Source: Aduncisulcus paluster (Eukaryota). Taken from it: 33,916 nt of DNA. Positions within the stretch are counted from its first letter, which is position 1. Every line of letters starts with the position of its first letter. Below the pieces are notes generated by a model. The model saw only the letters and a program-made list of their open reading frames with translations, was not told the DNA's origin and did not search any database. Below, piece by piece: positions 126-23,200 of this stretch. The DNA is taken from assembly GCA_024181965.1 (NCBI GenBank), contig BQXS01009689.1, positions 1 through 33,916 on the forward strand, read 5' to 3'. The translations under genes and the position numbers were made by a program.

Positions 126-509
126 ATTGACTCAGCTATATTCTTTCTGGTGGCTTATATTTAATTATATTACTCCAATTCAGTTTTTGTTGTTTTTCTA
201 ATGCCAAGTGGTCTGTTTTTATATTTTTATAATTTTTTTTGTTATATTCTCTCTCTTTTACAAAGTCAAATGAGAGAAATGGTGAATATAACAGTTAGCT
301 ATCTTCTTCAGAAATATTTCTTTTTTGTTTGTTTTTTACTATTGGACATCTAGTTCTAAAACCTAGATCTATAAAATTCTTCATCATTATCTATAGATTT
401 CGAGAGATTTTTAAGTCGGTTCATATATATTGGCCAATTTCCGTGGATTCAAAAATCTCCTGAGAAAATGTGTGAAATCTCAATAAAATATCATAAAATT
501 TTACAATCA

Positions 510-1502
510 TCACTTTTTTATCCGACTATCCCTATATGCCTCCCATTTCTCACTCAATAAATCCACAACCTGAGCCGTCACATTCTTGAATATTTTGAAA
601 CGAAGTGGTCCCAACATCACACCTCCCCAACGCCTTGACACCACCACACAGGCACAACTTACCTTCTTTTGCTGTAGAATAAAGGATAAACAGGGTCCAG
701 CATGAGCTTCACCATCCTCGTCGAAACCATCTTCGAGAGAGACGGATCCAGAACCAGAGCAGGAACATGAGAAGTGCTGGAATGGATCAGGAGGCATCTC
801 ATGACAACACGAATGACATATTCTAAAGGCCATAACATTATGAGTTGCAGTTCTCACATCTTTAAATAGATCTTTGAGATACTGAACGAAAGCAGGGGCT
901 TGTGTCGGATGATGGAGAAAACATCCAAATCCACGAAACGAACTCTTCATTTCTGTATGAACAGGTGTTGACACAATATATGGAAGCAATGATACAGGAG
1001 GAAAAGAGGTGATTGGAAGCAGATCTGATATCTTTTCACTATCTATTTCATCACCACTAACAAGTGGTTTAATAGGTTGAACTGATCTTTTCTGGGACTT
1101 TGTTTTCCCGTTTCTTTTGGTTCTCAATCGGTGAGATCGACCAGAAAGTATAATAGTGTCCTTTTGGATATCGTTCATAATAACATCCTTAACTGCCATA
1201 CAACAGGCATACATACCATCTTCAAGGGATTCTTGAGCTTTTAGTAAGCATTTTTCAGTATTTATGCAACGTGTAACCCCATCCACACGTTTCGGTTTGA
1301 CCATAACTGTTGGGTGGTCAAAAATACATTCAAAATCCAATTTTCCAATAATTATATCTGGACTACTATCATCTCGAATAGAAATCGATAAATTGGTCCT
1401 ATCATCAGATTCAATAACATCTCCAGGAAGAAAAATCGATCTCAACACAGCTACTTCAGAATTGAACCTTTCATGATCTAATTCTAAACCAAAAAAGGGC
1501 AT
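510..1502 (-). CDS. IMPACT: IMPACT/YIH1 family protein (RWD-like N-terminus plus UPF0029 'ancient' domain), 330 aa
   Basis: Motifs KSSF, ATHNVMAFRI, FDEDGEAHAG and VVVSRRWGGVMLGPLRFKIFKN correspond to the IMPACT consensus (KSxF, ATHNIxAYRI, DDDGExxAG, VVVSRWYGGxxLGPDRFKHI). The N-terminal EVAVLRSIF resembles the first RWD helix (ExxALxSIY). Confidence 0.92.
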   Translation of the reverse strand: MPFFGLELDHERFNSEVAVLRSIFLPGDVIESDDRTNLSISIRDDSSPDIIIGKLDFECIFDHPTVMVKPKRVDGVTRCINTEKCLLKAQESLEDGMYACCMAVKDVIMNDIQKDTIILSGRSHRLRTKRNGKTKSQKRSVQPIKPLVSGDEIDSEKISDLLPITSFPPVSLLPYIVSTPVHTEMKSSFRGFGCFLHHPTQAPAFVQYLKDLFKDVRTATHNVMAFRICHSCCHEMPPDPFQHFSCSCSGSGSVSLEDGFDEDGEAHAGPCLSFILQQKKVSCACVVVSRRWGGVMLGPLRFKIFKNVTAQVVDLLSEKWEAYRDSRIKK

Positions 1503-1568
1503 CCATAAAATATTAAATGAAAATCAATTATCACTAGCAAGAAAAACACATTTAAGATTAATTTGCTT

Positions 1569-1576
1569 TTTCGCGT
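1569..1576 (-). promoter_or_regulatory. ACGCGAAA (E2F/SCB-like) candidate promoter element upstream of IMPACT
   Basis: A CG-rich octamer in a very AT-rich spacer, about 70 nt upstream of the ATG. The same octamer recurs upstream of PLRG1. Confidence 0.3.
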
Positions 1577-1807
1577 GTTATTTGCAAATTACAAAAAATA
1601 TAAAGGTTTTAATTTCTTTATTCTAATGTTTATCTTTTATTTATAAATTGAAATATGTAATTCTTGATTAGTTATTTGTAAGAAATCCGGATTGGAACAA
1701 AATGAGATGCTGAGAGGAGGTGAATAATTAATTCCCGAAGATTATTTCTATATTTACAGCATAATATACATCCATAATAGACAACTTTCATTTTATTTGC
1801 GTAAGAA

Positions 1808-4800
1808 TTACAAAATACTCTGAAGGCACTCAATCAATGGAACAATCAATTTCAATTGAATATTTGCAAGGTAAGATGCTTCTTCAAATGAGATAAAATC
1901 ATGGAATGTCCCAATAAGATCTTTTATAGGGAAGTCAACAGATGTCAGCATAGTTGTGATTTGGCCTGAAATAATCAAATGCTTCAGATAAAAAATTAGT
2001 TTGTAAGGAAGAGTTGGAGAATTACTTATTTCGATATTTGATACAACCGATTTGATTTCCTTGAAGGCATGTTTGGATGCCTTCGCTGAAAACTTATCTA
2101 AACCGCGAACAAAAGGGGTCGAATATGAGATTAGATCAGCACAATCAACTCGTTGAATACAAGAGAGATATAAGTCTGGAAGATCCTCAAAATCTATCTT
2201 TCTCTTCCCTGAAATCAAGAACAGTTTATCATGGTGATGTTGAAGAGTATCCCGATCCATGATTCGAATAGACAATTTTCCAGTTTCAAAGTAAGAATCT
2301 TTGAGTTCAGAAATCATTTCTTTCATAAAATTCAAAATATCATGCATAAGAGGAGCAAGGCCATCATGGACAAGATGATCATATTCCTCCACCAATTCTC
2401 CAAAACGATCTCTGTGGAAATCAAATTGCTCGATATCCATACCAAAATGTTCAAGGAAATTAGTAAAGATATGCATGGACCCACTTTCTCGCAGGGAAAT
2501 AAAGGAATCAGGATCAAGAATAACCTTCTGAACACTACTACACAAATGTGTAAACATCGGTTGAACGATAGCCATATCGAAAATAAGTTGCCCTTGAACT
2601 CTTCTTAGGGGTTTTGTGAAGAAAATGGAACATAATGAATCCTTAAAGAAAGCACTAGAAGGGGCTAGTAATCCAGACACGATCTCCAAATCATGTTCAT
2701 TTCTTTCTGGAGATAAGAAGTTCAAACACCTTTGTTCATGTTTAAGACATAGGTTATCCATTTGAGTATAGAAGAACAAAGCACATTTATGATGCGGTTG
2801 TTGGAATTCATTACAGGCGATCTCGAATGGATCAATCAAAAGGAAGTAATAGAGTGGAGTTTTTGGTTGGAAATCGAACCATAATTCACGATCACCACAA
2901 GTAACAGTCTCACCTTCAGGGAACACGAATGACCAATCATTTTGAATGGAGTCAAACAAACTACGAATTGTAATATTATCTGAGGAGAAAATATCATTCC
3001 TAATCATTTGTAGGAAAGTGTTTGATTTATGTTCCTCTGTTTCACTCCACAAAGATTCAAGAGGTTCATATTGAGAATCATCAACTCTATTTTGAACATG
3101 ATTCCTAATTACTCGAACAAGATCAAGCAGTTCATGAAGGAGTTTCTCCTCTTTCCATGGCATGGATTTTGATTGCATATCCATATTATCTGTTGGTCTA
3201 CGAATCATGCCCTTTTCTTCTTCTTCTTCCTCTTCTTCAAATCTACGAACAGGAGGAACTCTTGCAAGGGGAGGGAATAAATTCTCAACATCCATTGGCT
3301 GTGGCAATTTTTCATCTAAAATTCTATAAATTCGCCCCCGATTTGAGCCAGAAGAACAAGAAAAGATCTCAACTAAAGATTGAATTCTTGCAAACCACAA
3401 TTCATTTCCTTGTTTTACCTTACAATTATCGTCGTTTGATATAGCCATAGATAAATCATGAGAATGCAATACTGTTAGAATATCCATCTTAAATATTATT
3501 GGAATTATATCAAAATTCCCTTCGAAAAATTGTGTCAGGGATCCTCCATCAATAGTGTCTTTTATCCGTGAACGGTTCTTTGCTTCTTTTGCATAACAAT
3601 TTTGTGCCATTGTAGATAACTCCTTCTCTAATTTAACCTTTTTGGTGATAGTTTTAGGAAGAGGACCCGCTTCACTAAATATTATATCCTGCAAAACTTC
3701 TCCCAGAATAATAGCTTTATCCGTATCTAACCCACTATATGATTTTGAAAATAATCCAAGAGAGCTTAATGAGATTCTAAAGTAATATTCAAACAAAGTA
3801 TTTGATATGTCACATCCACTTGGTTTGGTATCATGAACTGTTCCATATAAGGACAAAATCTTAACAAAAAGGAGGATATTCCAAACAAAATGAATAATTC
3901 GATCACCTATATTCACAAATTGAAATGGCATACTCTCAGCTGCGTGAACAATATCCGAGCGACAACTCTCATCAACAATAGATATACCATCCCATTCCTC
4001 TATGAAACCACAATCTTCTGCTTTTAATTTCTGAAGTTTGGCACTGTGCAAATCCCCCAACCTCGCAAAACGTCTTGTATCCAAACCACATTTGAAACAT
4101 CCTCTTCCAAGAGCAAGATTTCTATTTCCACATTCAGAGGAACTTGGAGCAGCATCACATCCTGCAGAGGAAATCAAAATACCACAATTGGTACATTGTC
4201 TAATAATATTAGCAGAACCATAACTAACCTTTGAACGAGAGGTTGCCGCAGAATCTCCAGCAATAACACTCGTAAGACTGAAGAGATCTGACTTAGTCCA
4301 AGCAGTGGGGAAATATGTTGTATGAAGGTCAGCAAGGGTACTGTGTTCAACAGTTGATACTAAATTTGAATGAACCGAATCTTTTCCGATAACTTGCATA
4401 AAACACCCACAACAAATACCAACAAGATACCTCCAAGTTACCTCGGTTTGAGTATTCTCCCTCAAAAGTTCCCCAATTTGAGGATTTGTCCGAATAACAC
4501 CCTCACACACAGGAAACTTCATCCACTTCATAAGTTGTAAGAAACGGACTAAGAATGAAATTTGATTAGGGTTCAAAACTAATCTCAGAGACTTAACGAT
4601 ATTTTGTCCATCATCTGTTTTTATATCATTCCCATTCAGGCCGGCAATGATATCATCAATGGTATTTGTTGAATGTAATGATAATATTAATGCTAAACGA
4701 GGATAAATTGGGAATTCATTTCCATAATGCAAAGAATGAAGTATTTCAATATCTTTTTGGATAATATATTGTTGATTTTCTTTTGGAATTCCCAGGAGAT

Positions 4801-7800
4801 CAAGCACATCGTTCTTTAGCATAGGAGCATCACATCCAAGACATGCAAGCAAGAAATTTTCGAAGGTACCAAACTGTTTAGCAGCTTCTGTCTTTAGACA
4901 CCACAACGCAATGGTAGGCCAAGCCATACTCTTACCGATATTCTTCTCAGATATGACCAAATCTCGTAATTCATCATTAATTATTGATCGACAGTGTGCA
5001 TATTTTCCAGTTATATCGCTGGTTTTGCAAGAAATGATTTGTTTAATAAATGTCACAACAGAGACAGCATCTTCTCGAAGCTTTACATATCGACAAATAG
5101 AATTGAAATCAATGGGTCCAAGGGTACTACTTTCTGATGATATTGACCTTTTTCGTTTTTTCCAAGTTCCTCGCGTCCACAGAGGGAAATATCCCGAAGA
5201 AAGAGTATCTATTAATCGACCCACTCTTGTAGCTGGAGAATCTTTTCGAAGGATTGAATACATCATAGAAATGAGAGAAATAGAAAATGTTGTATGTTCA
5301 TACCGCCCCTTTTGTTCAAACTGCAACCAATCGTTGAAAATACTCGTCACAATCGGATTATATGCCACATTAGCCATTGAAAAAGCGACACCCAAAATAT
5401 CCACACTGATTAATTCATAGAGCCAGAGTGAACGTTGATCAATTGCAGTTTTAACAGCCGCATTCATGAGTTCAATAATAGCTACAAACCAATTTTGAAT
5501 TATTGTNNNNNNNNNNNNNNNNNNNNTCGTTTTTTCCAAGTTCCTCGCATCCACAGAGGGAAATATCCCGAAGAAAGAGTATCTATTAATCGACCCACTC
5601 TTGTAGCTGGAGAATCTTTTCGAAGGATTGAATACATCATAGAAATGAGAGAAATAGAAAATGTTGTATGTTCATACCGCCCCTTTTGTTCAAACTGCAA
5701 CCAATCGTTGAAAATACTCGTCACAATCGGATTATATGCCACATTAGCCATTGAAAAAGCGACACCCAAAATATCCACACTGATTAATTCATAGAGCCAG
5801 AGTGAACGTTGATCAATTGCAGTTTTAACAGCCGCATTCATGAGTTCAATAATAGCTACAAACCAATTTTGAATTATTGTTGGTTCATCAACAGAAGATT
5901 TATCCGTTAAAATGTTTTCACACAATCCACACGAGGAAAATATCAAACAGCGGACTTGTTTTTGGAATGATTCTCGCTGAATTTCAGATGATGATTCTCC
6001 AAAGCCCCGAATTGATGCAGGAATTCCTGCTAATACTCGTAAAGCGAATCTATGGAAGTGGGACATTGAATCAGTTTCAGAGTGAATGTGAAGATTGTCA
6101 AGTGAATGTTCAAAAATACCAACAATGAGCCCATCTTGTCTTTCAGAATACAAATATTTCATCCAATCGAACAAAGAATTAAGAAACATTACAAAAGACC
6201 CATCAAGGGAATCTTGAACAGTGTTACAAATTGAAATTATAAATTCAAGTCGATTTTCGAACACAAAAATATCTTTTTTGAGCTGAGAAATAAACCACGA
6301 TTTCAGTAACCAAGTAATAAAGCGAGGAACACTACTCTTTTCAATGAAAGGCTGAAATACTTCTTTCAACATTGAATCAACATCTTTTTCATCAAATTTC
6401 ATCTTAATTGTATGATATAACACATATCCAACCTTAATTTGATTGATAAGTCGATGTTTAGGAGAGAAAAGATGAGAAAGGAAAGATAAAAGCTGAGACA
6501 ATGGAATGACATCTAAGAGCAGTTCTGGTTCCTCTTCCTTCTTTTTCTTCTTGTCTTTCTTATCCTTTTTCTTATGTTTTTCTTTTTTATCCTTCTTATC
6601 TTTTTTATCTTCTGATTTTTTTGTTTTTTTCTCAAACAATTTCTTTGAACACATAGATTTGACGACTTCCTCAAGTTCAGGATTCAACTCGGAATCTTCG
6701 GTAGGGACCAAAGGAAGTCCCGAAACAGCAATAGCAAGAGAACAATATGATATAGCTTGCTTTTGGGACAGCTGTGAAGGAATATAGAAGAGATTATCAG
6801 TATTGGTCTCGGAGAAAGGCTTTTTCTTACAAATTTCATGTTCAACCAATTGAGTAAACTCCCCAGCAAATGGAACACACAAAGATGTTGGATGGGAAGG
6901 TAGATCAATCACAACTGGAATAGTTCTTGATGAAGAGACATAACTGAGGGCAATATTCAAGATCTCATCACAAGCAACAAACTTATTAGATTTCGAACTT
7001 TCTTCCTCTTCTTTTTCTCTCTTCATTGAAGTTTCCTTCTTGGACCTATGGAAAGTTGTCCACAGCTCATCAGGAACCATCTCCTTTTTGTGAGAGTCAT
7101 CGTTCAAATCTTTCAATAGAATATCAATCTTTGAATCAACAATTTTCCTCCACATATCAAACATTTCATTCGGAGTGAAAAAAGTTGATTGCTCCGAACT
7201 TGAATCAGAATTTAAGAGACGATATGAGAATAAAGGACACCACAAAGTACACCGTAGTAATGAGTTTAAAACGAGAGCATCAGACAAAATCATTAAGAAT
7301 CGTTTAAACTGGAGCAAACTCCCACGATTTCCAAATATTGATATTGGAAACATCACTTCTTTCAAGTGGATATTCATTAAATCATGATAGTGTTCCCCCA
7401 AATGGTGAAACACTTTCATTGCCAAATCTCCAATGTATGCACGACATCTTCTAGCAAGTCGAACTTCATCTCGCGAAATATCAATTCCCTTCACATCTTT
7501 TTTCTGTTCGACATCAATTAGCGAGTATTTAGAACATCTAAGCAATGAATTTTGATGAGAAGCAACAGAAATGAGACGAAGAGCATGATTGAATTGTAGT
7601 TGACAATTTCTAGCATCTATATGAACCTGATCATCAACAATATCATCGACATCTGCAAAAGAACATAAAGCACCAGGTTGAGGCGAAAAGATATCATTTC
7701 GCCGAGATTCACAGATACATACAAGGAACACACTATTTCCAAGGGATGCTCCAAATGTATTCTTAATGGTGGTGGTAAACATTTCAAGATGATTCGTTTG

Positions 7801-10800
7801 AGATATTTGAGAATCATGAGAATCGGTAAATGAAACAAGAATTACGAATTTAACCTTCGAATCTGGTCTTTTGAGACTAATTTCCTCTTCCTCATCCTCT
7901 TCCTCATCTTTGCCATCCGTTGCCTTTTCTCCTTCATGTGGCGGGGTTTTAAATTGTCCTTCTTCCTCTTCCTCCTCACTTTTTTCAACCTTTGAACTTA
8001 TTTGTTTGGCATCAAATTGTACATCCATTCCATACGCTTTCATAATACCTGATAATTCACTCTTGTAATTGGAAAGTTCGAGCTGGAGTTGCAATTTGTT
8101 TGATACGGCCGAAGAATTCAGGCACTTAACTTCGATTAGACACTCATTGGAAGAACTCAACTCTCGTTTCAAATGGGATGACATGTTCGACATGTTAATA
8201 TCCTCCCTTCCCCGAACATTGACAATACAAATTGGAAGAAAGTTTGTGATGGCAACACAAGCAGCTCTAGTAGCAGTGAGATAACGACCACTATCAATAT
8301 GAGCCGCTTCAAAGAGTGTTTGGAAATCTTCATCGTCGATATAGAGTTCATCCAGTTTTTGTTCATCGAGGGGGTTTCCTTGTCGATATGGCAAGATAGC
8401 GAGGAACTTTTGCAACAACATATTCTTTGCAAACGACTCACAATTAGCAATACTTGGTTCTCTTGGTTGTGTAGAATACCAAGTTTGGGTTTCAAACAAG
8501 ACTGAAAGAAAAGTTTTCTTAACAAATTCATCACAAGAAAAGAAAAACTCCGATGGAACAGATCTGAGGTGGAATTGAGGATACCAATTAGCAATAAACT
8601 TTAGAAAAGGCTCCTCAAATGAATTTAAAATACTCATATCGGCATCTTTTCCGGTAATTTTCACCTTTTCCAATCTCTGCAAAAGAGCACTTTCCTCAAA
8701 CTTAACAGAATCCCTTAAATCCAGACTTGACTGTTGAATTTCATTCTTTTCTGGGAAGATCAAGATGAATCTAGCTCCTTGCTTCACCTCAACTCTACGA
8801 TTTCCACTAGTTCCAAGAGAGACACGACAATATTCAACTCCTTCTCTCTTACTGTGATTTTTGTTCAAAAGATCAAACAATGCACCAAGGTTTCCAATGT
8901 TCACCAAAATTCCAATATCTCCTTTCTTGGCAACATCAATAATCCGCTCAAGCTGCTCAGCCTCCTCATCAATGTTTCGTTTATCTCCCTTTAAGGAACT
9001 TCCATAAATAATTCGAACTCTTCGATTTGGATCAACACGGGATTGAATATACTGAGCAAGAAGAGTGATAAAATGAGTAGAACATTGAACATACAAATGT
9101 CTTGCAATAACACTTGTGTCTTGAACATTGTTAATAATGGCATCAAGCAAATTTCTTGGATTTGGAGCATAATAAGGCATTTGGGAAGTTGTTGGTACAG
9201 ATAAATGATTCCGACGCATTAATTCGGCAAGTTTTTTCTGAACTTCAGCAAATACCCTTTCATCAACACCACTATAACATCTACTGGCACAAAGAGAAAT
9301 TGTTTTATAGTCTTGAACCTGACTCTTCGCAACTGAAGCAACAAACCCAAATAAGTCTCGATTTCCAACCCATCGGCTTTTCCCAACAGCCTTGGCGGTT
9401 TCCAATGCATGATAATGAGTATCAACAAGAATATCAACAAAAACAGAGCTTATTTTTGAATCACCTTGAGTCTGGTATATTTCTGTGGCAATCTCCTTCA
9501 TTTCAGCAACCTTCAAATGAGGTCTAAAAATCAACAGGGATCGTGAAGAAGGAGCAGCATCTGGAACATGGTTAGAAATACCGATAAATGAGAAAATAGG
9601 AACTGGTTGTTCAACAGATGGCTCAAGAGGTGCATGCAAAGCTTTTAAAGGATTCATTGGACTTCTATGAGCCAAACCAAGCTCATCAAATAACAATACA
9701 CTCAGGCATTCCATATTCTCAACATCTTTTCGAGAATAGAAATTCTTGGCACGATTGATGAATGTTGTCACACCAGCACTTGTAGAACTTTCTGAACCCT
9801 GATAAGCAAGACAAAACAGAATTGGAACTCCTTTTTCACGGGCGTGATATTTAAGATAGGAGAAAGCAAGTTCTGTCGAAAGAGATTTTGATGATCCTGG
9901 AGAACCCATAATGAGCAGCGGAGTTCTAGAAAGCACGCACACAAGGATTGAGATAAAATTCTCCCGCAAAGCTGCACAATTTGCTACTCCAGAAGTCTTT
10001 GTTTCACTCAACCCTCTCTGTAAGAGTTCTTTACCAACAGTTTCAACATAATCATGATAGTTTAAGTTAGAACGAGAAATATAGTATTGAAATTCAGACC
10101 TCCATGTTATTGATGGAAGTCTAAGTTCATACACAAGCATGAGAGCAAGGCACCACGCCTTCTTAACAGTAATTTTGTTACCGCTTGATCTACTGGAGAG
10201 TTGAAAAATGTTTTCGTGCGCAAGTAAAGTATAAAAAACCCGAGCAAACCTAACTGGATCTCTCAATGAACAATTCCAAGCAGATCTTTGAGCCTTTTCT
10301 CGAACGAACATATGAGCTTTTATCACGACTTCAACCAACAGTTTATAATCATAGTCTGATATATCACGAATTTTTCTTGCCTTTTGCATGAGTTTGGACG
10401 AGTGAAGAATTGAATAAATATACTCTCTTGTGTCTTTGGGATTCAATTCTCCAAAATCCATAGTTCGACACAAGAGAGAAGGAGGAAGAGGATGAACTCT
10501 GTATATTGTACTCACTTCTGAAATAAATTCGTCAGTTTCTTCCCTTGAATCTCTAGGTTTCCGATGGCGGTAAGGATTCGTGGCGATTACAATTCCAATG
10601 TTTTCATGGAGAAGAACACTTCCAATACTTCTATTCTTTGCCATATTACAAACAACATCAATTAGATCTGATGCATTGGATTCATCAATGAAAAGGATTA
10701 CCAAAGCTTTTTCTCTCAGACCCTGGATTTTTTCGTTGTGGGCTTTAAAATCGAGGATTTCTGGAACACCTGATTTCGGACTTGTATCCAATTCACGGAG

Positions 10801-13800
10801 GGCAACTTCCTCTTTTTCTAAAATAGATCCCCAAATCAAGTCTGCTCGACGATTTGCTTCGGCAACAGATTCAATTAATTTGCCAATCGAAGATCCAGCA
10901 TCAAGAGTGACTTTCACAAATGGATCAATCTGAACCTTTTCGGCTTCTAAAAGTCCAATTTCAGAGAGAGAGCCAATTAAAAATTGAATCAAACTTGTTT
11001 TTCCCACTCCAGAATCAGCTCTAAGAACGACAAGTCTCTCGGTACATAACATCAGCCGAATCTGGATCATTTTGAAGAGGTTATCGGGAGTAATATTATA
11101 TTCACCATCCAAAAACTTAACACTTCCAACAATATCAGAATCGGGAACTAAATATTCTACCAGTTTTTTTCTGAGATCTTTATCACTCTTGTCTTTCACA
11201 CAACTCATTTGCCCAACGGAGCTTCCCCGCAAAGAAGTATAGAGTTTGCTAAAAATATGATCAATTGCATGTGAAATACCAGAATATGAATCATGAGAAA
11301 TAAATCTAACATTTTCATTTTCAATTATTGGAATAATTCGTTTTTGTTGCTCCCATGAAAAAATACACTCATCGAGATATTCACCACGAGTAACTTGGTG
11401 AGCCTGGGAATTTCCACACATTCCAGCAAATTTACACTCAACAGCAATCATTTTCCAGATATCCTTAAAAAATGTCTCGACCAACTCCCGACCAATATCA
11501 TGCTCCCGACAGATCACATCAACCATCATTGAAGGATAACCATAAACTCCATGAGACTTGAAAAATACAACATATCTATATGCAGCAAGGGCAATAGAAG
11601 AGATCACACCATATGTAATGTTCTTGATTGGAATTGCACACTTCTCAAGTCCAGGAATACGCCCACCAACAAAATTCTTTATGATTTCAATATCCTCCGG
11701 TTCAAAACAGATTTGACTACAATCGTTCATAGGATTCTGATATTGTTTAATTACCGTGGCCAGAGCAGCCAAAGCAAAGAAATAACGTTTGCTTGTTAAC
11801 ACCATACTCTCTGAAGCCACAAGACTTCCTGTGGAGATTTGAAGCTCTTTCCAGCTAAAAGTATGTTGAATGTTGTGTCTTTTCTCGACACATAAATGGT
11901 TTAATCTTTCAGCAAGCCAGTTTGCACGAGAAGATTGAATCTCGACATGAACAGTAACATCATCAGTCAAATAAAGAAAAGAACCATTTACACGAAGAGC
12001 CTTAAGATAAAGGATGGAGAACAAGAAATCTTGCAAATGTTTCTCACTTCGGATTCCTCTTTCCATTGCATAAGAATGGATATCAGATTCAATTCCTTCT
12101 CCATCAAAATTTTCCTCATCTAAACACATATTTATCCTTCCAATATCAATCCACAATACTCCATTGCCAACACCATCCTTAGCTTTCGTTACAAAGTCTC
12201 TAATGTCTTCACTAAGGCGTGAAAATGAACATTCACCACTGATATGGAAAGGTAATAAACGATTATCACCACGCCCATAAATAAATTTGATATTATGGCT
12301 TTTGCCATTTGCTGGTAAATCCGAAGTATGAATGAAAGAAGTTGGGGTTTTAATATGATCAGGATCAAGAGGAGAAAGATGATTGAAATAATCGTACCAA
12401 AGAGTTGACTCTGCAAACTTCCCTTTGTCTTTCATTGGACAGAAAATAACGAGCTTAACATCATCATAGTCTCTAACAATCAGCTTTGAGAGAAGAGATA
12501 GAGCAGCATTGGAAAGTTCTTCACATCGAAGAATAGTATGGAGGCTGTCATGAGCACGAGCGTGTGCAAGAAAAGAATAAATCTCATCATAGGATGTAAT
12601 AGATGAACAGAATAAAATATTACTCGGATCCATTCGAACCTTTTCCTGTTGATACAAGAATGGCACTCGATTAAGCATAGTCATCATTTGTGTATCTTCA
12701 TAAAGAATGATTGTTGGTGCTGTGATTGTCTTATAAGTAAACAGACGACGTTTAGGTTTTGCAAGATCCACATGTAATCCACGAGAAATCTGGACATGAC
12801 CGTGAGAACGCTCAGCTTCATATGAAGCAACGAATTTATCATAGGCTCGATATCCTTGCAAAGCATAAATGACTTCTTTGATTTGGGCAAAGGCAATATC
12901 AACATCAGAATTCTTGCATAATGTTCTGATAAATGGAGTTAAGCGAACGTTTTCCCTTGCAGCACTGAAATGGAATACTTGAAGTCCTCCGAGATCAGCC
13001 TTATCGCCTCGCAAAGTAGCGATATCTTTTCCAGTGATTCCTGAAAGAATTTTGGAAGATGAACGCAATTTATGGAGCTCTCCTTGAAATTGTTCGAATT
13101 TCTTTGAGATTGCCTCATCAATGCGTTGGAAATCACTAATAATATAATCTTCCCGCTTAATCGCAAAATGACTCTGAAGGGAAGATTGTGACGATGTGGG
13201 AGAAAGTGGGAAAGAAACTGATTCAACACTGCTACTCTTCTCATTGTCCCCATCTTGCTGTGCAGCTTTTCCATCCTTGAAACCTTTCCAAGCAACAGGA
13301 TTCCAGGAATCATATTTGTATTCCCAGACAACATATTCATCTCTCCCAGGTGGGATGTCGATAATTCCATTGTGATACATTTTTTCAATACCTGTGCGAA
13401 TACGTTCAAGGAATTGGACAGCATTGATAAAGTTCATTCTATGAATATCCTCTTGAATATTGCTCTTCTTTTGGAATCTTGCATCACCCACAGCACTTTT
13501 TAACCTTTCCTCAGAGACAATATTACTTTGAGAAACTGGAGCCACAGTTTTAACATGTCTTCCCTCTTCTTCCTCTTCCTCTTCCGACTCTTTCATAGGA
13601 ATTAGAGCTCTTGAAGGAGCGGAAGCTCCCTTTACAAGACGAATCTCGAATTTTGAATTCTCAAATCTCAAAATCTGAACAGTTTGTTGAAAAATCAAGT
13701 TTCTAATTCGCAAATCGAGATATTTTGAATCAGAAAGAGCGTGAAGAAGACTTTTTTGGTGAGCAATTGTTAGATGTTCAATAATTTCAGCTCCCTTTTT

Positions 13801-16800
13801 CGCATTTTGCGCTCCTAATTCAGTTTGGAATCGACGCACTGTAGACACAGCAGAGTCAAACCTCGAAACGTCAAGTAAGGAGTCATGTAACTTTTGTACA
13901 GCATCATAGATGTTTTGTTGAGAGAAGAAAATCAGTGCTTGAAGAGCATCAGGGGTAATATTAATCAAAGTAATCTCTTCCATCAATGAAGCAAAAATTT
14001 CACGATTTTCTTGAGATTTTTCAATCGCCTTCTTACACAATTTAATGAAGGAGTCTTTTCCATCGATGATATAAGAAGCTATTTTCCAAGCATCTTCACA
14101 TCCTCGCCCTTGATCAATACTGGAAGTCACAGTTTCACCCCGCAATAACGTAGTGGCATATGATAAAGATTTATCTAGAAGTAACTGAGTGTGACATATA
14201 TTGGGATTAGGAACATCTTGTGACATTTGGGAGGATTGTTCACACAACCTCAACATTTCATCAAGAGGTTGAAGGTAATCGGGAAGGTTGACACCAAAAG
14301 CATTTACAATAGACCGTAAAATATATGGTTGTTCTCTCATATACCATATTGATAGAGATTCACCACATTTTGGGAAACAATACCGAATACAATCATCTTC
14401 AAAACTGATAATTTCACCTCTCCGAGCTTCTTCCTCATCACGGCTCATTGTCGTATTCCTAGGCGGGAAAGTCATATTTTTAATCTTGTTAACATAATAA
14501 ATGTAATAAGAGAAAAAAAGGAGTGAAAATTCATCAGATATTTTGGAACTTTGCAATTTTTCCATGAACTTGAACAAATTCTTCCACTTTTTCTGTTCAG
14601 AACCCTCAGTCAATAGTGAATGGGGAACCCCAACTTTAAACAGAGCAGCAAAAAGGGATTGTGCTCCTGTCTTCTCCTCTATTTCCTCAGGTTCTTCATC
14701 GACCTCCTCCAGTTCCTCAATATCTGCATCTCCTTGTTCTGGAGGTTGGGGTTTCTTTTCCTTCATTTTCTCAGCAATCTTCTCCCGTTTCGCTGCCTCA
14801 AGGAAGAAACAAATAAATTCCAACAAAGGAAGAGAAGAAAACCTCCTTTCTCTAGGAATTTGGTTGTAAAATATGATAAGTTGTTCCTTTTCAACACTAG
14901 CTTCTTTTACAAAATTCTCAGGATTTGCTTGATTTAGAGGTTTATCAAACATTAAAGCACGGCATTGACTCATTTTATCAACAATACCATTTCCTTGGGC
15001 TTCATCGATGTATTTCCACACAACTCGATTATACAAATCAATCATCTTTGAATATTCATCAATTCTACCAAATTCTTCTTTCACTTTTTTAATTTCTCTC
15101 TGAATATATGGACGAGATATGCTGGTTAAATCGGACATTAATTTCAATGGGTGCAAAGGTTCTTTTACGGTGGTTGTTTTGGAACCCACATGCGAACCTC
15201 CACGATTCCAATATGGACTCGACCAATTTTGTCCACCAGAATATTGATGATCAGACCAATAATCTTGTGTTTTCCTTCTAGAGCTAGAATCACTTGAATA
15301 AATGGAATTTTCGACTTCACTCCTTGCAAAAATACCTTCAAGATGTAAAATATCATTGTATGAGAGATTTCTTTCCTGAATATCATCAAAGAGAGAAATG
15401 AAACGTTGGAGAATACCAAATAAATGTGTAGACCGAATGATGGGAGATTCAAGTATATCCTTTAATCTTGTGAATGTTTTTTTAATAACCACACACAAAG
15501 AAAGACAATGAAGATACTTGGGAGAAGAAATTATATCGAACCGTTCCTCTCCGTCTGCACTAATCTGATTTTTGAGGAATTCGTTGAATACTTGATTGAA
15601 GAAAATTTCTTGGATTTGATCTTGATCTTGACTCTTAATTTTAGTTCCTCGAACGATATCAATTGCCGAAATACAGATAATTTTGACCAAATTTGAATCT
15701 TCTCTGAAACGATCACACATAATTCTCATCAATATTCCAAAAAGAGGATGAAGCATGACATTATATTTAAAGGAAGTGAAAATCTTGTCAATCGGATTGA
15801 CTTCACCCTTTTTCTTCGATCCAAATAATCCATTTGAAGCTGGAGCAGAGCAAAGAGGCTTGACAAATCCAGGATCATCTAAAAGTTGACTCAAGTTTTT
15901 ATGTTCCACAAAAGCAGAGATAGACTTCTCAATAAGGGGTTTTAGAACTTCAAATTGCGTAAAAGGAAGCAAAAGGTCAAATAATTCCAGAATTGAACTA
16001 ACTGGGTCATGATGAGTCGACTTATCATCAGAATATACACCCATTCTGTTACCAAGGGCCACAAAAATATTCTGAAAAATCTCAAAATGCTCTTTGGAAA
16101 GGGTTAAAAAAGGCTTCTTTACGAAGATCAAGTTCGAAATGGTGTGTAAAAATCGAAAAAGAGAAAATCTTCGAACATGATTTCCAANNNNNNNNNNNNN
16201 NNNNNNNCATCTAAAAGTTGACTCAAGTTTTTATGTTCCACAAAAGCAGAGATAGACTTCTCAATAAGGGGTTTTAGAACTTAAAATTGCGTAAAAGGAA
16301 GCAAAAGGTCAAATAATTCCAGAATTGAACTAACTGGGTCATGATGAGTCGACTTATCATCAGAATATACACCCATTCTGTTACCAAGGGCCACAAAAAT
16401 ATTCTGAAAAATCTCAAAATGCTCTTTGGAAAGGGTTAAAAAAGGCTTCTTTACGAAGATCAAGTTCGAAATGGTGTGTAAAAATCGAAAAAGAGAAAAT
16501 CTTCGAACATGATTTCCAACCCAAGCTGAACGGATTTGACCATCCTCAAAGAATAATTGAACATCATCCTTAATAATTAACTTTTGAAGATGCTCTGGAA
16601 TAAGATGATATAGATAAATTCGAGCCTGAAAAAGGAGATCAGCTTTACGTTTAGCTTCAATTCGGTCAGGTGCTGTCATGGAATACATACCTCTTGTAAC
16701 AAACGAAGGTGCTCCCTTTTTCTCCCCATCACTTGACTCATCATCGTCATCATCGTCATTATCATCATAGAGACCACGATCTGGCTGAGCACCTATGCCA

Positions 16801-18539
16801 TCAAAGGTAGGAACTTCTCCTTTTCGAAGATCAGTTTCAAACGCAATAATATGCTCGAACAAATGAAGTTCAATAAACGGTTCGAGGTGGTCTGAAAAAA
16901 TATGAAGCAAAGGACTGGTCATAAAGCATTCTATTGTGATATTCAGAACACGATAAATTTGTTGTTGTAACACAAGAGCATGGTTGATTCCAGTAGATAG
17001 AGCTGGATTATGGGAAATAGCAGAGAAAATAAATCTAATAACTTCAGAAAAATCTCCTTTTGAAGATTTAAAAGACAACGAATGGTATTGTTTCCCATAT
17101 TCATGAAGCTTTTGAAGGATTGAAATGGGTTCAAAGAGACGCCCAGGAGAATGAAACCAGGGGATCCCACCAGGCTCACTCTCTGAAAATCCGGTCAAAG
17201 CTCGCAAAATTTTTGAGCTTATACTTTTCAATTTTTTAAAAGAATTAAATTTTAAATCCAAATATTTAACTTTGGCAAGTTTTTCAGCAGCATCTCTGAT
17301 TTCAGCAAACCCGTGAGTATAACGCTGAGAGGTTGACCAATCAGCATAAATTCCCACGACAAATAAAGTTTTGATAGCAAGTTCTTTCCACATTTCTTCG
17401 GTTGAATTCTTCTTCGCTATCTTCTCCACAAAATTTGGAATGCAAAATGCGATTCTTGGATCATAATTAAGCAATCGAATCAAAAGAGGTAACTTTTTCT
17501 CAGACATAATCAAAGGGGCTTGACGATACTTGTCAATGGAAGCTTTGCTATCGTGAATAAGATAGATACCGAATTTTCGTGGGGCATTTTCGGACCGAAT
17601 CATACGATTATTGTAAACACTACCATCTAATTTTTCCCATTTCCAATCTGACCCTGTAAAAGTTCGAAATCTGAGCTTGAATTCAGAGAAGGAGGTATCA
17701 GGAACATCAAAAACAGCATCTCCGGCCTCAATCGAGGAATCCCAAAAAAGATTCTTCGCTTTATATATTTCTTTGAACCCTGATGTTGATTTTGATCCAT
17801 AATACCCAGAATATCCAGTATACTGAGTATAAGTATATCCATATGAAAGTCCAATATCTTCAGAGGATNNNNNNNNNNNNNNNNNNNNTAATCAAGGGGG
17901 CTTGACGATACTTGTCAATGGAAGCTTTGCTATCGTGAATAAGATAGATACCGAATTTTCGTGGGGCATTTTCGGACCGAATCATACGATTATTGTAAAC
18001 ACTACCATCTAATTTTTCCCATTTCCAATCTGACCCTGTAAAAGTTCGAAATCTGAGCTTGAATTCAGAGAAGGAGGTATCAGGAACATCAAAAACAGCA
18101 ACTCCGGCCTCAATCGAGGAATCCCAAAAAAGATTCTTCGCTTTATATATTTCTTTGAACCCTGATGTTGATTTTGATCCATAATACCCAGAATATCCAG
18201 TATACTGAGTATAAGTATATCCATATGAAAGTCCAATATCTTCAGAGGATTTAACGATAGAGTCATCATAAAGGACATATAATTTAAAAGATGTATTATA
18301 TGTTGGATATGACATTTTGTATGTTTGTGTCAAAACCAGCTTCGATGATTCAAGTTGCTGAGGATCCTGGCTTCGAAACAAAAACAAAAAAATCAATGCA
18401 AATAATTATTTTATTCAGATCAGATATGCTTAAAGAGAATTTATAATTTGTTGATTCAGACAAATTGACTGGAGGATCCTCAGATTTAATACATCGGAAA
18501 TATTGTTCAATATCATTATATATATAAAACCCATACCAT
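1808..18539 (-). CDS. RNF213: RNF213/mysterin-like giant AAA+ ATPase / E3 ubiquitin ligase, about 5,140-5,157 aa after collapsing three gap-flanking duplications
   Basis: ORF-track pieces 17860-18396, 16281-17603, 5500-16131 and 1808-5554 overlap each other in near-identical sequence. Span 1808-18366 minus 374+332+382 nt is 15,471 nt, or 5,157 codons including the stop. RNF213-type motifs occur in the expected order: YNITPDNLFKM..VLRADSGVGKT, ILFIDESN, IATNPYR, IYRVHPLPPSL..DFGELN, SLRDPVRF, ALRENF..PLLIMGSPGSSKSLS, LFDELGLAHRSPMNPLKALHAPLE, FIGISN, LFDLLN, LLQRLEK. The start is uncertain: ATG 18539 with an intron, or ATG 18315 without. Confidence 0.9.
5153..5880. repeat. 354-bp direct duplication flanking a 20-N gap (5153-5506 vs 5527-5880; gap 5507-5526); probable unmerged contig overlap
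   Basis: The copies appear identical by eye except 5175 g vs 5549 a (Thr vs Met). Confidence 0.93.
8660..12760 (-). other. Dynein-like multi-AAA+ core of the RNF213-like protein (approximate bounds)
   Basis: P-loops DLPANGKS (~12298-12321), ADSGVGKT (10996-11019) and GSPGSSKS (9883-9906), plus Walker B motifs ILFIDE and VLLFDE, match the three nucleotide-binding AAA units described for RNF213. Confidence 0.85.
15876..16519. repeat. 312-bp direct duplication flanking a 20-N gap (15876-16187 vs 16208-16519; gap 16188-16207)
   Basis: The copies appear identical except 15951 c vs 16283 a (GAA Glu vs TAA stop on the minus strand). Confidence 0.93.
17507..18250. repeat. 362-bp direct duplication flanking a 20-N gap (17507-17868 vs 17889-18250; gap 17869-17888)
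   Basis: The copies differ at 17514 a vs 17896 g (synonymous Pro) and 17719 t vs 18101 a (Asp vs Val). Confidence 0.93.
17975..18300 (-). other. CBM20-like carbohydrate-binding domain at the N-terminus of the RNF213-like protein
   Basis: The pattern EFKLRFRTFTGSDWKWEKLDGSVYNNRMI resembles the CBM20 C-terminal signature (eYKy...WE...NR). Animal RNF213 carries a CBM20-like domain at the start of its stalk. Recognised by eye; no HMM was run. Confidence 0.55.
18367..18536 (-). other. Candidate 170-nt spliceosomal intron immediately after the start codon of the RNF213-like gene
   Basis: The minus strand reads ATG|GTATGGGTTT ... TTTTTTTGTTTTTGTTTCGAAGCCAG|GATCCTCAG. It has a GT donor, a very AT-rich body, a U-rich tract and a CAG acceptor. 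Splicing gives in-frame MDPQQLESSKLVLTQTYKMSYP. Confidence 0.55.
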
Positions 18540-18582
18540 AAATTCAAGTTAAAAATCAAAAAATTATTTTTCTGACAAAATT

Positions 18583-19263
18583 ACTTTATGAATCTTAACA
18601 GTATTATCCATATGACCCGTCAAAATTATGTCTTTGAAATGTACCATTGACAAAATTGAGCATCTTGATTCTTTAAAAATTGTTTTTTCAGTCGGAGGTT
18701 CAAATAATCCAAGAGTTCTCCCGCTAGAAACATCAGAAATATGAAGAGAGCCATTTTGATGACATGTAAGGAGAGAATCACTATCTAAATAGAGCATCGC
18801 ATTCACTTCTCCAAGCCCATGTGAAACAATCGATTCTGAATCAGTAACACATTGCTTAGCATGAGGATAGAGCAATCTTAATTCTGTTGGAACATGAGAA
18901 ACATCTGTCAGACTAAATCCACTTTATGAATCTTAACAGTATTATCCATATGACCCGTCAAAATTATGTCTTTGAAATGTACCATTGACAAAATTGAGCA
19001 TCTTGATTCTTTAAAAATTGTTTTTTCAGTCGGAGGTTCAAATAATCCAAGAGTTCTCCCGCTAGAAACATCAGAAATATGAAGAGAGCCATTTTGATGA
19101 CATGTAAGGAGAGAATCACTATCTAAATAGAGCATCGCATTCACTTCTCCAAGCCCATGTGAAACAATCGATTCTGAATCAGTAACACATTGCTTAGCAT
19201 GAGGATAGAGCAATCTTAATTCTGTTGGAACATGAGAAACATCTGTCAGACTAAATCCACTTT
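18583..19263. repeat. 338-bp head-to-tail tandem duplication of the 3' third of the PLRG1 gene, with no N gap
   Basis: 18583-18920 equals 18921-19258 by eye. A 5-nt microhomology acttt occurs at 18583, 18921 and 19259. Confidence 0.92.
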
Positions 19264-19999
19264 TGGAATCTTTCATAATGGGCTGAATATCTACTGGTTT
19301 AAATAAAGGCCCCTCATCATGACAATGATTGCCAGATATTGACCATTTTCTCACACAGTCAGCAGCCGCAGAGATTAAAGTTCGCGAAATAACACCTTTA
19401 TCAATCGATTTATGCCCTAAAAGTGATGTAATCGTGCCTCTATGATGTGTGAGAATTGATAAACATTTACCACCATCGAATTTAGACAATGATCGCAAAT
19501 CCCAAGTTCGAATTGTTGAATCTTCAGATCCACTAATAATTTGAGGATCAGATACCATTGTCTCAAGACACGTGACGGCATCTGAATGACCTTTCAACTC
19601 GTAAAATGAATATGAAGTCCGGGGATCCCACAATCGTAGCGAATTATCTCGAGATCCCGTAATAAAAATATCCAAAGCCGGATGATGTTTCATACAAAGA
19701 ATATCACTGTGATGCCCTGTATGCCTCCTAATGCATTTTCTTTGGGACAAATCCCAACAACATATAGATCTGTCTTCACCAGCACTATACAAATGGTGTG
19801 GGTGCACTTTGCTAAAATAAAGTGTTCTAATATTGGCAGTATGCCCTGTAAATACATCAATAACTTTGTAATCAAAGTCGAAAAAATAGATAACATTGCT
19901 ACACGCTGTAACAAAGAATTTACCGGATGGATGAACAGCTATTGATCTTATCCATGAATCATGAGGTTTAAGAATACTCTTAACATGTTCAATTATCAT
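18908..19999 (-). CDS. PLRG1: Pleiotropic regulator 1 / Prp46 (NineTeen-complex WD40 splicing factor). 363 aa as assembled; 365 aa ending at 18564 if the 338-bp duplication is collapsed.
   Basis: WD repeats align in order with PLRG1/Prp46: HDSWIRSIAVHP, TGH...LYSAGEDRSICCWDL, IRRHTGH...HPALDIFITGSRD..RLWDPRT, LKGH...DPQIISGSEDSTIRTWDL, LTHH, and C-terminal LTGHMDNTVKIHK. Confidence 0.85.
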   Translation of the reverse strand: MIIEHVKSILKPHDSWIRSIAVHPSGKFFVTACSNVIYFFDFDYKVIDVFTGHTANIRTLYFSKVHPHHLYSAGEDRSICCWDLSQRKCIRRHTGHHSDILCMKHHPALDIFITGSRDNSLRLWDPRTSYSFYELKGHSDAVTCLETMVSDPQIISGSEDSTIRTWDLRSLSKFDGGKCLSILTHHRGTITSLLGHKSIDKGVISRTLISAAADCVRKWSISGNHCHDEGPLFKPVDIQPIMKDSKSGFSLTDVSHVPTELRLLYPHAKQCVTDSESIVSHGLGEVNAMLYLDSDSLLTCHQNGSLHISDVSSGRTLGLFEPPTEKTIFKESRCSILSMVHFKDIILTGHMDNTVKIHKVDLV

Positions 20000-20021
20000 C
20001 CCTTTACCACAAAAGCTGATA

Positions 20022-20029: not shown

Positions 20030-20203
20030 TCTTTTTTTTCTATCTTTATTGGAAAATAATATCGTAAATATATTCGTGCACCTGAATAGTAAGTTCTCTA
20101 AAATGCAGAAATAATGATCTTAATCATATTTTATGCTGTTTTATTTATGGTGAACGGAAGCCAATGGGTTTTCTTCGCAAACAACAAGGCAATTGACATA
20201 AAA

Positions 20204-23200
20204 ATGTTAATTGTTAAACCTCCTGAAGTTGTATTTGGGATATCTTCCCAATTTCCAGTGTCTTTGCAAAAGAGTGTCTTCATACAAAATACAAGTGGCA
20301 AAATTGTAAAGATAAAAGTATCCTCTCCTGCCACTCAGCATTTTCAAGTTTCTAAACCTTCCAAAACTGAAATTCCATGTGGTTTAGAAGTCGAAGTTCA
20401 AATATTTTTCCAAGCAATTGAAGAAAAGACATATTATGATTCTTTCTTCATATATTCAGATTCTGGACAAAAAATTGAGGTCAAATTAAAAGCTATTCCA
20501 CCAAGTCCCGCATTTGAATTTAACAAATTCTTAAATTTTGGAGTAATTACACCTACAGAGGTTGTTCAGAAAATTGTCACCTTCAAAAACACTGGTTCAA
20601 AGACAGGATTTGTAAAATTGTGTTATCAGCAACCGTTATCATCCACAAAAGATCAAGCATTACTTGAAGAAAAGCCTGCCACACCTGTCATATCCATTGA
20701 GCCCACCATATTCGAGTGTGAACCCGGTGGTCAACGTTCTGTTAAAGTTACAATAACCCCTCGATCCGTTGAGAATGTTCGTGTTCTTGCCCATGTCCGA
20801 CAGTGGGATACCATGGATGCTGCCAGGATGGATTCTGGCCCTGTGCCATCAATGATGTCTCAGAGTGCCATTTCACGGGGGATCCCGAGTTCGTTCAGTT
20901 CTACCACAATGGCAACAACGTCCAGTACAAATTCAGGCTCATATATTGACATTTCATGCTCCGTTGTTGAGCCTGTTGTCACTATCCATGACGTTAAAAC
21001 TGGAAGAGAATTAACAGAATTATCATTTCCAAATACTCTATTCTATCATTCCGTCAAGAGAGAAGTTGTTTTAGTTAATAGTGGACCCCATCCTGTTGAA
21101 TTTAACCTCCAATGGAACGATCTCTCTCAGTCAAAGTTCTTCCGACAAGGAGGCGATGATGACGGCATGGAAGCTATGAAAAGTATGAAGCTCGGTGCCA
21201 AACCTGTTTCTATGCCCCCTCCATCTCGATCATCAGAGCCTGCTACTTCCCCTGAGCTTTTGGCTGTCCACCAAGAGACTCGCACTCCTCCAATCACATT
21301 CTCGCCACCATACGGTGTTCTCCAACCCCATTCCTCACAATCTATGACAGTCACATTCACACCCGTTTGTAGGCGGGGTGTTTGCGAGCGTGCCGAACGA
21401 TTCATGGGACAGGTGAATATGAAGAGAAGGAAAGACCTTCTCAAGAAAGCCATGGATATTAGTACAAGTGCACAGAACGATACTTCGCGGACTTCTGGGA
21501 GATCTGGTCATCCAATGCCTGCAGGTTCTTCTGGTACCCGCAAAGGACTTGTGGGAGTATCTGTATCCACCCTTATGGGCAATTCGGCAGTGTCTCCTGG
21601 CATTAAAACCGGAATAACATCCTCTTCGATGAATCCCAAAGATTCTACATCCCTCGCACTTGGAGAGATGCCCCATGTTGCAGATGGGGCTCTTGACACC
21701 ACCCTTCTGGCCCATTTAGGAACAGAATATGCTCTCATTGTTCCAGATTCAGATCTTAGTATCTATGACTTGGTATTGAAGCTCTGTGTGAAGAATAAGG
21801 TTGGTAATGCAGGAGTTGGAGATGATCCTTCAACAGCTCTTTCCATGTCTGCCAAAGGTACATCTCGAACTAAACCAATCGTCACTCCATCATCACAGTT
21901 CTCTGTTCTTCGAGAAGTCATTGTCAGGGGCCGTGGGGTTCGTCCAGATGTGACTCTTTCCCATCTCAAGATAAATTATGGAGAGTGTCCTGTGGGATCC
22001 AAAGGGCATGTCACACATTGTTACATTCAGAATAACTCAAGAATAACCACAGCAGCTATTGATGTTGGGAATTTAGCCTTCTTCAAGGTGCATCCAACAA
22101 CCATTCCTGCCCTTCGACCTATGGAAAGGGCTGATCTATACCTTGAGTATTGTCCTCGGGTTCTGGGTCCTACTGTTGGTGATATTAATGTGAAAGTCAG
22201 TGGTATGTTTGACCTCAAGGTGAGGGTTCGAGGTGTTGGAATTGGGAAGAAGAAAGAAGTGTCTGAAATTGTTGGAAAGGGAAATCTGATTGAAACATCC
22301 TTAGAACCGACAACAGCCCGCAAGAAGACTCTTACCGTTGCCGGAGAGTCAAAACGCACTCCTTTCAAATCTACCAAGAAGGTTATGAAACATTTGACGA
22401 CATCTCTACTGCCCGCATCAGAAATGGCTTACTTGGACGAGTATCATAAAGAGGTTGACGATGAGAATGGTCTTGCACCACCCACCCTTGAGATGTGTGA
22501 GATGGAGGATCATTTGATTGTTGACGATAAAGGTGGACGTGGGCCTTCCTCTTCCACATCCTCTGGCACATCATCCACCGTTCACAAACATTCCCATCGT
22601 ATCAGACACGCCCTTAATAACACACAGGATCTCATTAAACATAAATTCCCTGCCCACGCTGTGGGAGCTGTCGTAGATGAAGTTAGTGTACAACTGACTA
22701 ATAGAGAGATGCAAGCAATTCACACTGGTCCAAGGTCATTTGATATGGGAACAGTAAGTGTATTTTCAACATCTGCCCAGAGTTTTAACATAAACAATGG
22801 AACCCCAAGGCATATTGTGGTAACGATTATTAGTAATACGAGTGAATGTGAACCTTTCCCATCCTCTCAAGTGATTCCTCCCGGTGCTATTGCTGGATTT
22901 GACATTGTTCTTGCCCCCACCGTTCCTGCTCCCTTCTCACAGGCCCTTGAGGTTCTTGTCAATGGTGCAGTGCAGTATGTTCTTGATGTTACTGCTTCCG
23001 TCTCACCAACTATCCTATTCTGTGACACTGACCGTGTTGATTTTGTACTTGACGACAGCAACATTCTTGAGAGTAGCATTGAACACTATGTCCAATTGGA
23101 AAATCCGGGGACGGCAGATGCCAAATATTCGACTCGAATGGTTTGTGTAAAAGACAAGGAAGAGAAGGATCGCACTGCTAAACTCACTTCAAGAATACCC

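Follow-up and report, generated by a model that had tools for sequence, protein, structure and literature searches.

RNF213 (mysterin) is the closest described system to the gene discussed here. In the mouse protein, according to PMC7311170, AAA3 and AAA4 alone are competent, and AAA2 binds ATP in a structural role. The canonical RZ finger of RNF213, as given in PMC11549300, coordinates zinc through C4505, H4509, C4525, and C4528 and uses C4516 as nucleophile and H4537 as base; the same paper names ZNFX1 as the other known RZ-finger protein. Here, we describe an RNF213-like gene on the minus strand of a 33,916-nucleotide stretch of DNA (contig BQXS01009689.1, the whole of which is called the window below) from Aduncisulcus paluster, a free-living, bacterivorous, and microaerophilic fornicate flagellate (PMC9933649). 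Its product (the window protein) probably belongs to the RNF213 (mysterin) family as a fast-evolving member; it has an RNF213-type AAA core, lacks a RING, carries a probable diverged RZ-like Cys cluster, and, by analogy with RNF213, would act as an ATP-gated ligase. The initial annotation, made from the sequence alone, had placed such a protein in a flagellated protist, which agrees with the nature of the organism and with the HYDIN-like flagellar gene that adjoins the locus.

In the open reading frame (ORF) listing of the window, the gene appears as four minus-strand ORFs (1808-5554, 5500-16131, 16281-17603, and 17860-18396), between which lie three runs of 20 N (5507-5526, 16188-16207, and 17869-17888). 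Each of the three gaps within the gene has a direct duplicate on either side: 5153-5506 repeats as 5527-5880 (354 bp, 99.7% identity), 15876-16187 as 16208-16519 (312 bp, 99.7% identity), and 17507-17868 as 17889-18250 (362 bp, 99.4% identity). When the N run and one copy are removed at each gap, a single open minus-strand frame without intron remains (1811-18405), which is 5,169 codons long between its two stops and 5,139 codons long when counted from its first ATG (18315), with the stop at 1808. The 5,157 codons of the initial annotation thus came near but were not exact, and its end coordinate (18539) lies past the upstream stop of the frame. The gene and the three artefacts are located as follows.

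1808..18315, minus strand: entire RNF213-like coding sequence, 5,139 codons and a stop after collapse (ORFs, contig continuity across the gaps)
5507..5880, no strand: assembly artefact 1, 20 N plus the 354-bp duplicate, 374 nt surplus (duplicate match, contig skip)
16188..16519, no strand: assembly artefact 2, 20 N plus the 312-bp duplicate, 332 nt surplus (duplicate match, contig skip)
17869..18250, no strand: assembly artefact 3, 20 N plus the 362-bp duplicate, 382 nt surplus (duplicate match, contig skip)

The N gaps and the fragmented short-read assembly behind the window (MaSuRCA, 150-bp paired reads, N50 of 4.6 kb; PMC9933649) could suggest that the ORFs are separate loci or a mis-scaffolded chimera and that editing produced the single frame by chance. 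However, a 26,564-nt contig from run X1 (DNA) and a 19,103-nt contig from run X2 align on 1500-18800 with no differing letter, each crossing all three gaps, and both omit exactly 374, 332, and 382 nt there, which equals the duplicate plus 20 N in every case (at gap 1, the skip runs from 5175 to 5550). X1 is possibly the window's own source, in which case it counts as a separate assembly and not as separate data; X2 stems from another study of the same sample, and its status as RNA is a guess only. Moreover, the 5,169-codon frame is open only after exactly those deletions, and a paralogue of A. paluster (P0002, see below) is collinear over residues 1067-3459. A set of separate loci is very improbable and effectively refuted; the four ORFs are one real gene of Aduncisulcus paluster, as the initial annotation had proposed, and the collapsed coding sequence agrees with the contigs of both runs. 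The gap-flanking duplicates look like overlapping contig ends left unmerged after scaffolding, and we infer their tie to the MaSuRCA assembly.

Two further contig joints (6551 to 6998 and 7978 to 13563) were discarded as repeat artefacts, as their sides measure just 21-22 nt. Short Glu/Lys-rich coding repeats cause these false joints in both runs, and the protein contains several acidic runs and one lysine-rich run of low complexity.

Contrary to what had been supposed, the gene is not hidden. The best database match is the protein itself, a 5,305-aa NCBI model (P0001) named 'E3 ubiquitin-protein ligase RNF213 like protein [Aduncisulcus paluster]', which merely carries the gap artefacts: compared with the collapsed frame, 111 residues are duplicated behind residue 26, the 32 residues 476-507 are missing, and 87 residues are duplicated behind residue 3914. 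The public model therefore needs three gap corrections (+111, -32, and +87 residues). The gene is a highly divergent new member of a known family whose name is already in the public databases, and it opens no long-standing question; with this locus, Fornicata (Metamonada) join the lineages in which RNF213-family proteins of full length occur. Full-text literature searches, judged by titles and abstracts and without coverage of supplementary tables, found no paper on RNF213 homologues in protists.

The gene is probably transcribed, with the proviso that X2 is only guessed to be RNA. The X2 contig spans the whole coding sequence and extends only 5 nt upstream of the ATG, to 18320, and the following X2 contig begins at 18398; the X1 DNA contig continues through 18320-18398, where the X2 contigs break. 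The contig end near 18320 is a weak hint of the 5' end of the transcript, and if X2 is RNA, the 5' untranslated region would comprise just a few nucleotides. Very short 5' untranslated regions are a feature of diplomonads.

The identity of the protein is carried by its AAA core. A phmmer search of the PDB with the 3,535-aa middle piece returned nine RNF213 sequences (E 4e-38 to 1e-35, about 660 residues), and the remaining three matches at E<=1 were unrelated (E>=0.12). The alignment to mouse and human RNF213 takes in the Walker B of AAA3 and both Walker motifs of AAA4, and it continues further. With a profile built from four fornicate sequences, the match to RNF213 became a contiguous alignment of 790 residues (E 6e-108), and the other 8 of the 17 PDB matches at E<=1 were Clp-type ATPases or their relatives (E>=0.038). 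When 300-residue windows were compared with the family profiles, similarity was collinear and significant from about residue 1680 to about residue 3010: all windows from 1501-1800 up to the AAA4 Walker B were significant (E 6e-5 to 4e-28), those downstream of it reached E 6e-39 and 3e-16, and the reversed controls for the upstream windows all stayed at E>=0.13 (17 of 17). The Walker A and B residues of AAA3 and AAA4 are invariant in all four fornicate sequences, and so is the GK of an upstream P-loop remnant (residues 1766-1767); here, a weak extra stretch (independent E-value 0.0087) aligned to the upstream P-loop 'GVGKS' region of mouse RNF213, which is consistent with AAA2. The elements of the core are listed below.

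8572..12564, minus strand: RNF213-family homology region, about residues 1680-3010, AAA2-AAA5 by collinearity with mouse RNF213 (phmmer, profile, and windows)
12298..12306, minus strand: G-K-S, residues 1766-1768, remnant of a P-loop that may be the nucleotide site of AAA2 (weak stretch, independent E-value 0.0087)
10996..11010, minus strand: AAA3 Walker A, GVGKT, residues 2198-2202 (RNF213 alignment)
10681..10701, minus strand: AAA3 Walker B, VILFIDE, residues 2301-2307 (RNF213 alignment)
9883..9906, minus strand: AAA4 Walker A, GSPGSSKS, residues 2566-2573 (RNF213 alignment)
9682..9699, minus strand: AAA4 Walker B, VLLFDE, residues 2635-2640 (RNF213 alignment)

These alignments indicate that the AAA core is specifically RNF213-type, and the initial claim of RNF213-type AAA motifs in the right order is borne out by the Walker A and B pairs of two consecutive AAA units that follow each other in RNF213 order. 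From the start, the finding named as one that would speak against this assignment was an AAA protein of dynein or midasin type whose likeness to RNF213 ends at the P-loops. Pfam, with which the protein was scanned as four pieces, yields at E<=10 only sub-threshold generic AAA matches (E 0.05-0.2) and chance matches, which leaves room for such a protein; however, neither AAA_5 nor AAA_7 is found in these scans, the PDB profile search gives RNF213 over 790 contiguous residues, and no dynein or midasin chain is among its 17 matches at E<=1. On this sequence comparison, the dynein or midasin origin has a practically negligible probability and is already refuted.

The RNF213-type core can be followed through the relatives of the protein. 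A total of 406 proteins matched at E<=1e-3, and most of them are RNF213-like proteins that come from Glomeromycota, invertebrates, or metagenomes; no Naegleria sequence is among the best 120. In a quick LG+G4 tree of the AAA core (54 rows chosen from 119, 698 columns), two A. paluster proteins and two proteins of Chilomastix cuspidata (P0004 and P0005, from a EukProt transcriptome) form one group with a Shimodaira-Hasegawa-like approximate likelihood ratio test (SH-aLRT) value of 100 and a long stem, in which the Chilomastix pair is the sister group of the A. paluster pair and the window protein is sister to the paralogue P0002. This grouping fits vertical descent within Fornicata, with due caution for long branches. 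P0002 is a partial protein of 3,723 aa with 33% identity over residues 1067-3459 of the window protein, and a second fragment (P0121, 1,528 aa, annotated 'hypothetical') is 30% identical to its C-terminal part. P0002 ends and P0121 starts near residue 3730 of the window protein, and the two lie on separate A. paluster contigs; judging by their positions, both seem to derive from a single second RNF213-like paralogue about 5,250 aa long, with P0002 as its N-terminal and P0121 as its C-terminal fragment. Beyond AAA4, the Chilomastix proteins align with the wider family over 1,966 columns (E 5e-49) and the A. paluster pair over just the first 371. Because the Chilomastix proteins align that far, it is the A. 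paluster lineage that is divergent.

The C-terminal third of the window protein contains a Cys cluster (residues 4345-4393) with the pattern C-x2-C-x8-C-x8-C-x10-C-x2-C-x12-H, which lies 1,706 residues past the Walker B of AAA4, with about 795 residues left to the C-terminus. In P0007, P0012, and P0005, the RZ finger is found 1,437-1,532 residues past the Walker B and about 740-800 residues from the end. Between the A. paluster paralogues, the 160-residue block around the cluster shows 48-52% identity in 60-residue windows compared with 27% overall, and the six Cys and the His are all kept in P0121 at 30% overall identity. In the aligned RZ fingers of the relatives, the first knuckle is C-x-C and not C-x3-H in 30 of 32 cases, and the central Cys follows eight residues after the second knuckle residue in the family alignment, with identical spacing in the window protein.

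4049..4195, minus strand: Cys cluster, probable diverged RZ-type zinc finger (spacing, paralogue conservation, and hhalign)
3848..4330, minus strand: block with the highest conservation within the C-terminal 1,199 residues, which holds the Cys cluster (paralogue identity windows)

In profile comparison by hhalign, the cluster aligned to the RZ columns at E 3.3e-4, and in a windowed comparison with the family-plus-Chilomastix profile it did so at E 2.2e-5 (probability 76%, 121 columns). The downstream flank by itself also matched collinearly and with the same offset (E 0.0056; reversed control, 0.56). At the same place, P0005 has a partial Pfam RZ match (E 6.6e-4, 19.7 bits, under the 27-bit cut-off). 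The P0005 finger (residues 2766-2850) is interrupted by an insertion of about 25 residues, and P0004 (residues ~4117-4240) is without cysteine at the aligned RZ position. Taken together, an RZ ancestry of the Cys cluster is the favoured explanation, and in such a finger C4357 or C4366 could be the nucleophile.

A RING was found neither in the window protein nor in the best 120 of its 406 relatives. Pfam gives no RING at E<=10 in the four pieces, and a pattern search without a full-length vertebrate positive control found no C3HC4-type pattern, just two Cys/His-enriched windows, and a single Cys-rich window in the whole protein. Among the relatives, the precomputed Pfam lists of the best 120 of 406, read with RING accessions that we presume to be the right ones, include no RING family and in many cases the RZ finger (PF20173); a RING pattern search of 121 sequences, again without a full-length vertebrate positive control, found none. 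To be RING-less and RZ-only may be the norm of the family outside vertebrates, judging by these domain lists and patterns. The altered E3 module of the initial annotation holds in so far as the window protein is RING-less and has an atypical RZ-like cluster; it does not set this protein apart, as the best 120 of 406 relatives appear RING-less too.

Several results weigh against the interpretation as a family member with a working RZ-like centre. None of the four pieces matches a Pfam family at E<=0.01, not even AAA, and no Pfam RZ is found at E<=10; the family RZ hidden Markov model scores the cluster at E 8 only, and the general-base His is unaligned. The reversed Cys window also matches the RZ columns (E 2.9e-3), and a segment restricted to the Cys region scores E 0.003 forward and 0.0015 reversed; because the reversed controls match too, much of the RZ signal is due to Cys composition and spacing. 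Among the windows compared with the family profiles, none matches from 450 to 1500 residues past the Walker B or beyond 2100. The N-terminal ~1,500 residues match nothing by sequence or profile windows, the paralogue included, and the C-terminal ~2,100 residues are for the most part likewise without a match. For the C-terminal 1,199 residues, phmmer against 1.84 billion representatives found only the protein itself and P0121, and neither phmmer nor a profile gave an RNF213 match in the PDB. Both AlphaFold2 (AF2) models, of the C-terminal and the N-terminal region, give no structural support by their predicted local distance difference test (pLDDT) values of 32.5 and 45.

It is on this evidence that a second explanation has to be weighed, namely that the gene encodes an RNF213-derived AAA machine from which the ligase function is gone, the E3 module being lost or replaced, the cluster being a structural zinc ribbon of unrelated origin, and the gene product serving as an ATP-driven scaffold or remodeller. 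The missing RING and Pfam RZ, the similar forward and reversed scores of the Cys-only segment, the unalignable E3 shell and C-terminal domain, and a fornicate relative (P0004) without any Cys at the RZ position would all agree with it. On the other hand, nothing else in the C-terminal third of the two paralogues is as well conserved as the cluster with its flanks, the cluster sits at the RZ position with the matching knuckle-to-Cys spacing, the windowed hhalign match of the forward sequence is better than that of the reversed one, and the downstream flank matches collinearly. We regard the loss of ligase function as the less likely outcome, albeit one with a real share of the probability, and retain the diverged RZ finger as the preferred interpretation.

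The remaining parts of the proposed architecture could not be recovered. The initial annotation had announced a complete CBM20-stalk-AAA-E3 layout, which could not be demonstrated: no Pfam CBM20, RING, or RZ is found at E<=10, and the similarity to the family is limited to about residues 1680-3010 and the weak stretch at 4345-4393. The N-terminal domain was the CBM20 candidate.

17911..18315, minus strand: N-terminal domain of about 135 residues, predicted at low confidence to be all-beta; earlier CBM20 candidate, unconfirmed (AF2 single sequence)

For the N-terminal 142 residues, AF2 run on the single sequence predicts an all-beta fold with eight strands (pLDDT 45, predicted template modelling score (pTM) 0.42). 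A Foldseek search with this model returned nothing from the PDB at E<=0.001, the best match (E 0.13) being a phage baseplate protein, which is meaningless on a model of pLDDT 45. The best phmmer match of the domain in the PDB is an MIB1 repeat at E 0.061, probably by chance. Pfam CBM_20 was absent at E<=10 in the pieces and at E<=1 in the N-terminal domain, and an hhalign comparison of the N-terminal 400 residues with 26 CBM20-like domains of Glomeromycota relatives gave no match within residues 1-160. The motif 'FK..F...W.WE...NR' has a putative likeness to CBM20. For residues 600-1650 of the large piece, a second database search with a word index found only the protein itself. In the C-terminal third, the AF2 model of the 1,199 residues (two-row alignment, pTM 0.25) is unusable, as is the N-terminal model, and the ESM Atlas score of P0121 (0.75-0.76) lies within the noise range.

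By analogy with RNF213, a mechanism can be proposed in which the cluster would be a diverged RZ finger, with two zinc knuckles bracketing one or more conserved free cysteines. Nucleotide binding at AAA3 and AAA4 would gate the transthiolation from the E2 to the Cys, from which ubiquitin would pass to the substrate, for which bacteria, membranes, lipid droplets, or proteins come into consideration, and the long, unalignable, and hypervariable N-terminal arm may select the target. If the cluster is catalytic, the RZ finger and not the RING would be the old ligase centre of the family. As to the biological purpose, we only infer an antibacterial role, which would match the bacterivory of the organism and the fast-evolving arm. 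A bolder version, which is improbable, would have A. paluster possess two RING-less RNF213-type machines, with an all-cysteine expanded RZ as the sole ligase centre and N-terminal arms that an arms race has driven apart until even the paralogues no longer resemble each other there, as a cell-autonomous ubiquitin-coating defence of a free-living anaerobic flagellate against symbionts or prey bacteria escaping from food vacuoles. If this version is true, RNF213-type immunity would predate the origin of animals.

The HYDIN-like neighbour (20114-32572, plus strand, 4,095 codons) has Ig_CFAP65, HYDIN/VesB Ig, ASH, and Cep192 domains. It contains the fourth 20-N gap of the window (27967-27986), which is flanked by a perfect 163-bp duplicate. 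Since 163 and 20 add up to 183 nt or 61 codons, this artefact is in frame and silently adds 61 false codons; the gene counts 4,152 codons uncorrected and 4,095 after collapse. The guanine-plus-cytosine content is 31-39% over the RNF213-like gene and its small neighbours (1-20000) compared with 42-47% over the HYDIN-like gene (21000-32000), and the genome mean of A. paluster is 39.1% (PMC9933649). The small neighbours are a UPF0029/IMPACT-like gene (510-1502, minus strand, Pfam E 2e-16) and a WD40 beta-propeller protein (18908-19999, minus strand). An ORF that is open at its 3' end (33046-33915, plus strand) has no Pfam match.

How the window protein stands in relation to the described systems can be summarised by comparison with ZNFX1, RNF213, and the RZ-bearing relatives. 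ZNFX1 is a superfamily 1 helicase, and no helicase family appears in the Pfam scans of the window protein. The vertebrate RNF213/mysterin proteins (PDB 6TAX, 7OIK, 8S24, and 9G08) measure 5,148-5,207 residues compared with 5,139 here. They differ from the window protein in that the latter shows no RING in pattern and Pfam searches and no detectable CBM20, and in that its N-terminal arm, linker, E3 shell, and C-terminal domain cannot be aligned by sequence or profile. The finger differs too, as PMC11549300 gives C-x3-H-x6-C-x8-C-x2-C-x8-H for RNF213, which compares with the pattern of six Cys and one His given above. The likeness lies in the AAA core, which is collinear over about 790 residues, in the intact Walker A and B of AAA3 and AAA4, the competent units of mouse RNF213 (PMC7311170), in the weak match to the AAA2 P-loop region, and in a Cys cluster at about the distance of the RZ finger from the C-terminus.

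The relatives from Glomeromycota, invertebrates, and metagenomes (for example P0007, a 'RZ-type domain-containing protein' of Rhizophagus clarus) have an AAA core that is 25-27% identical to that of the window protein. Their RZ passes Pfam (46 bits in P0007), unlike that of the window protein, and 26 of them have an N-terminal CBM20-like domain without a match to it. The Chilomastix proteins are closer, with BLAST similarity of P0004 to the window protein over residues 1501-2986; P0005 has a half-canonical RZ and P0004 has none. Compared with the RZ of the relatives (P0003, a 'CBM20 domain-containing protein' of Diversispora epigaea, is another RZ-bearing example), the finger of the window protein has one extra conserved Cys and about 11 extra residues, and the spacing from the knuckle to the central Cys is the same. 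With the AAA3/AAA4 engine preserved and a Cys cluster still in the RZ position, the gene illustrates how much divergence the family tolerates.

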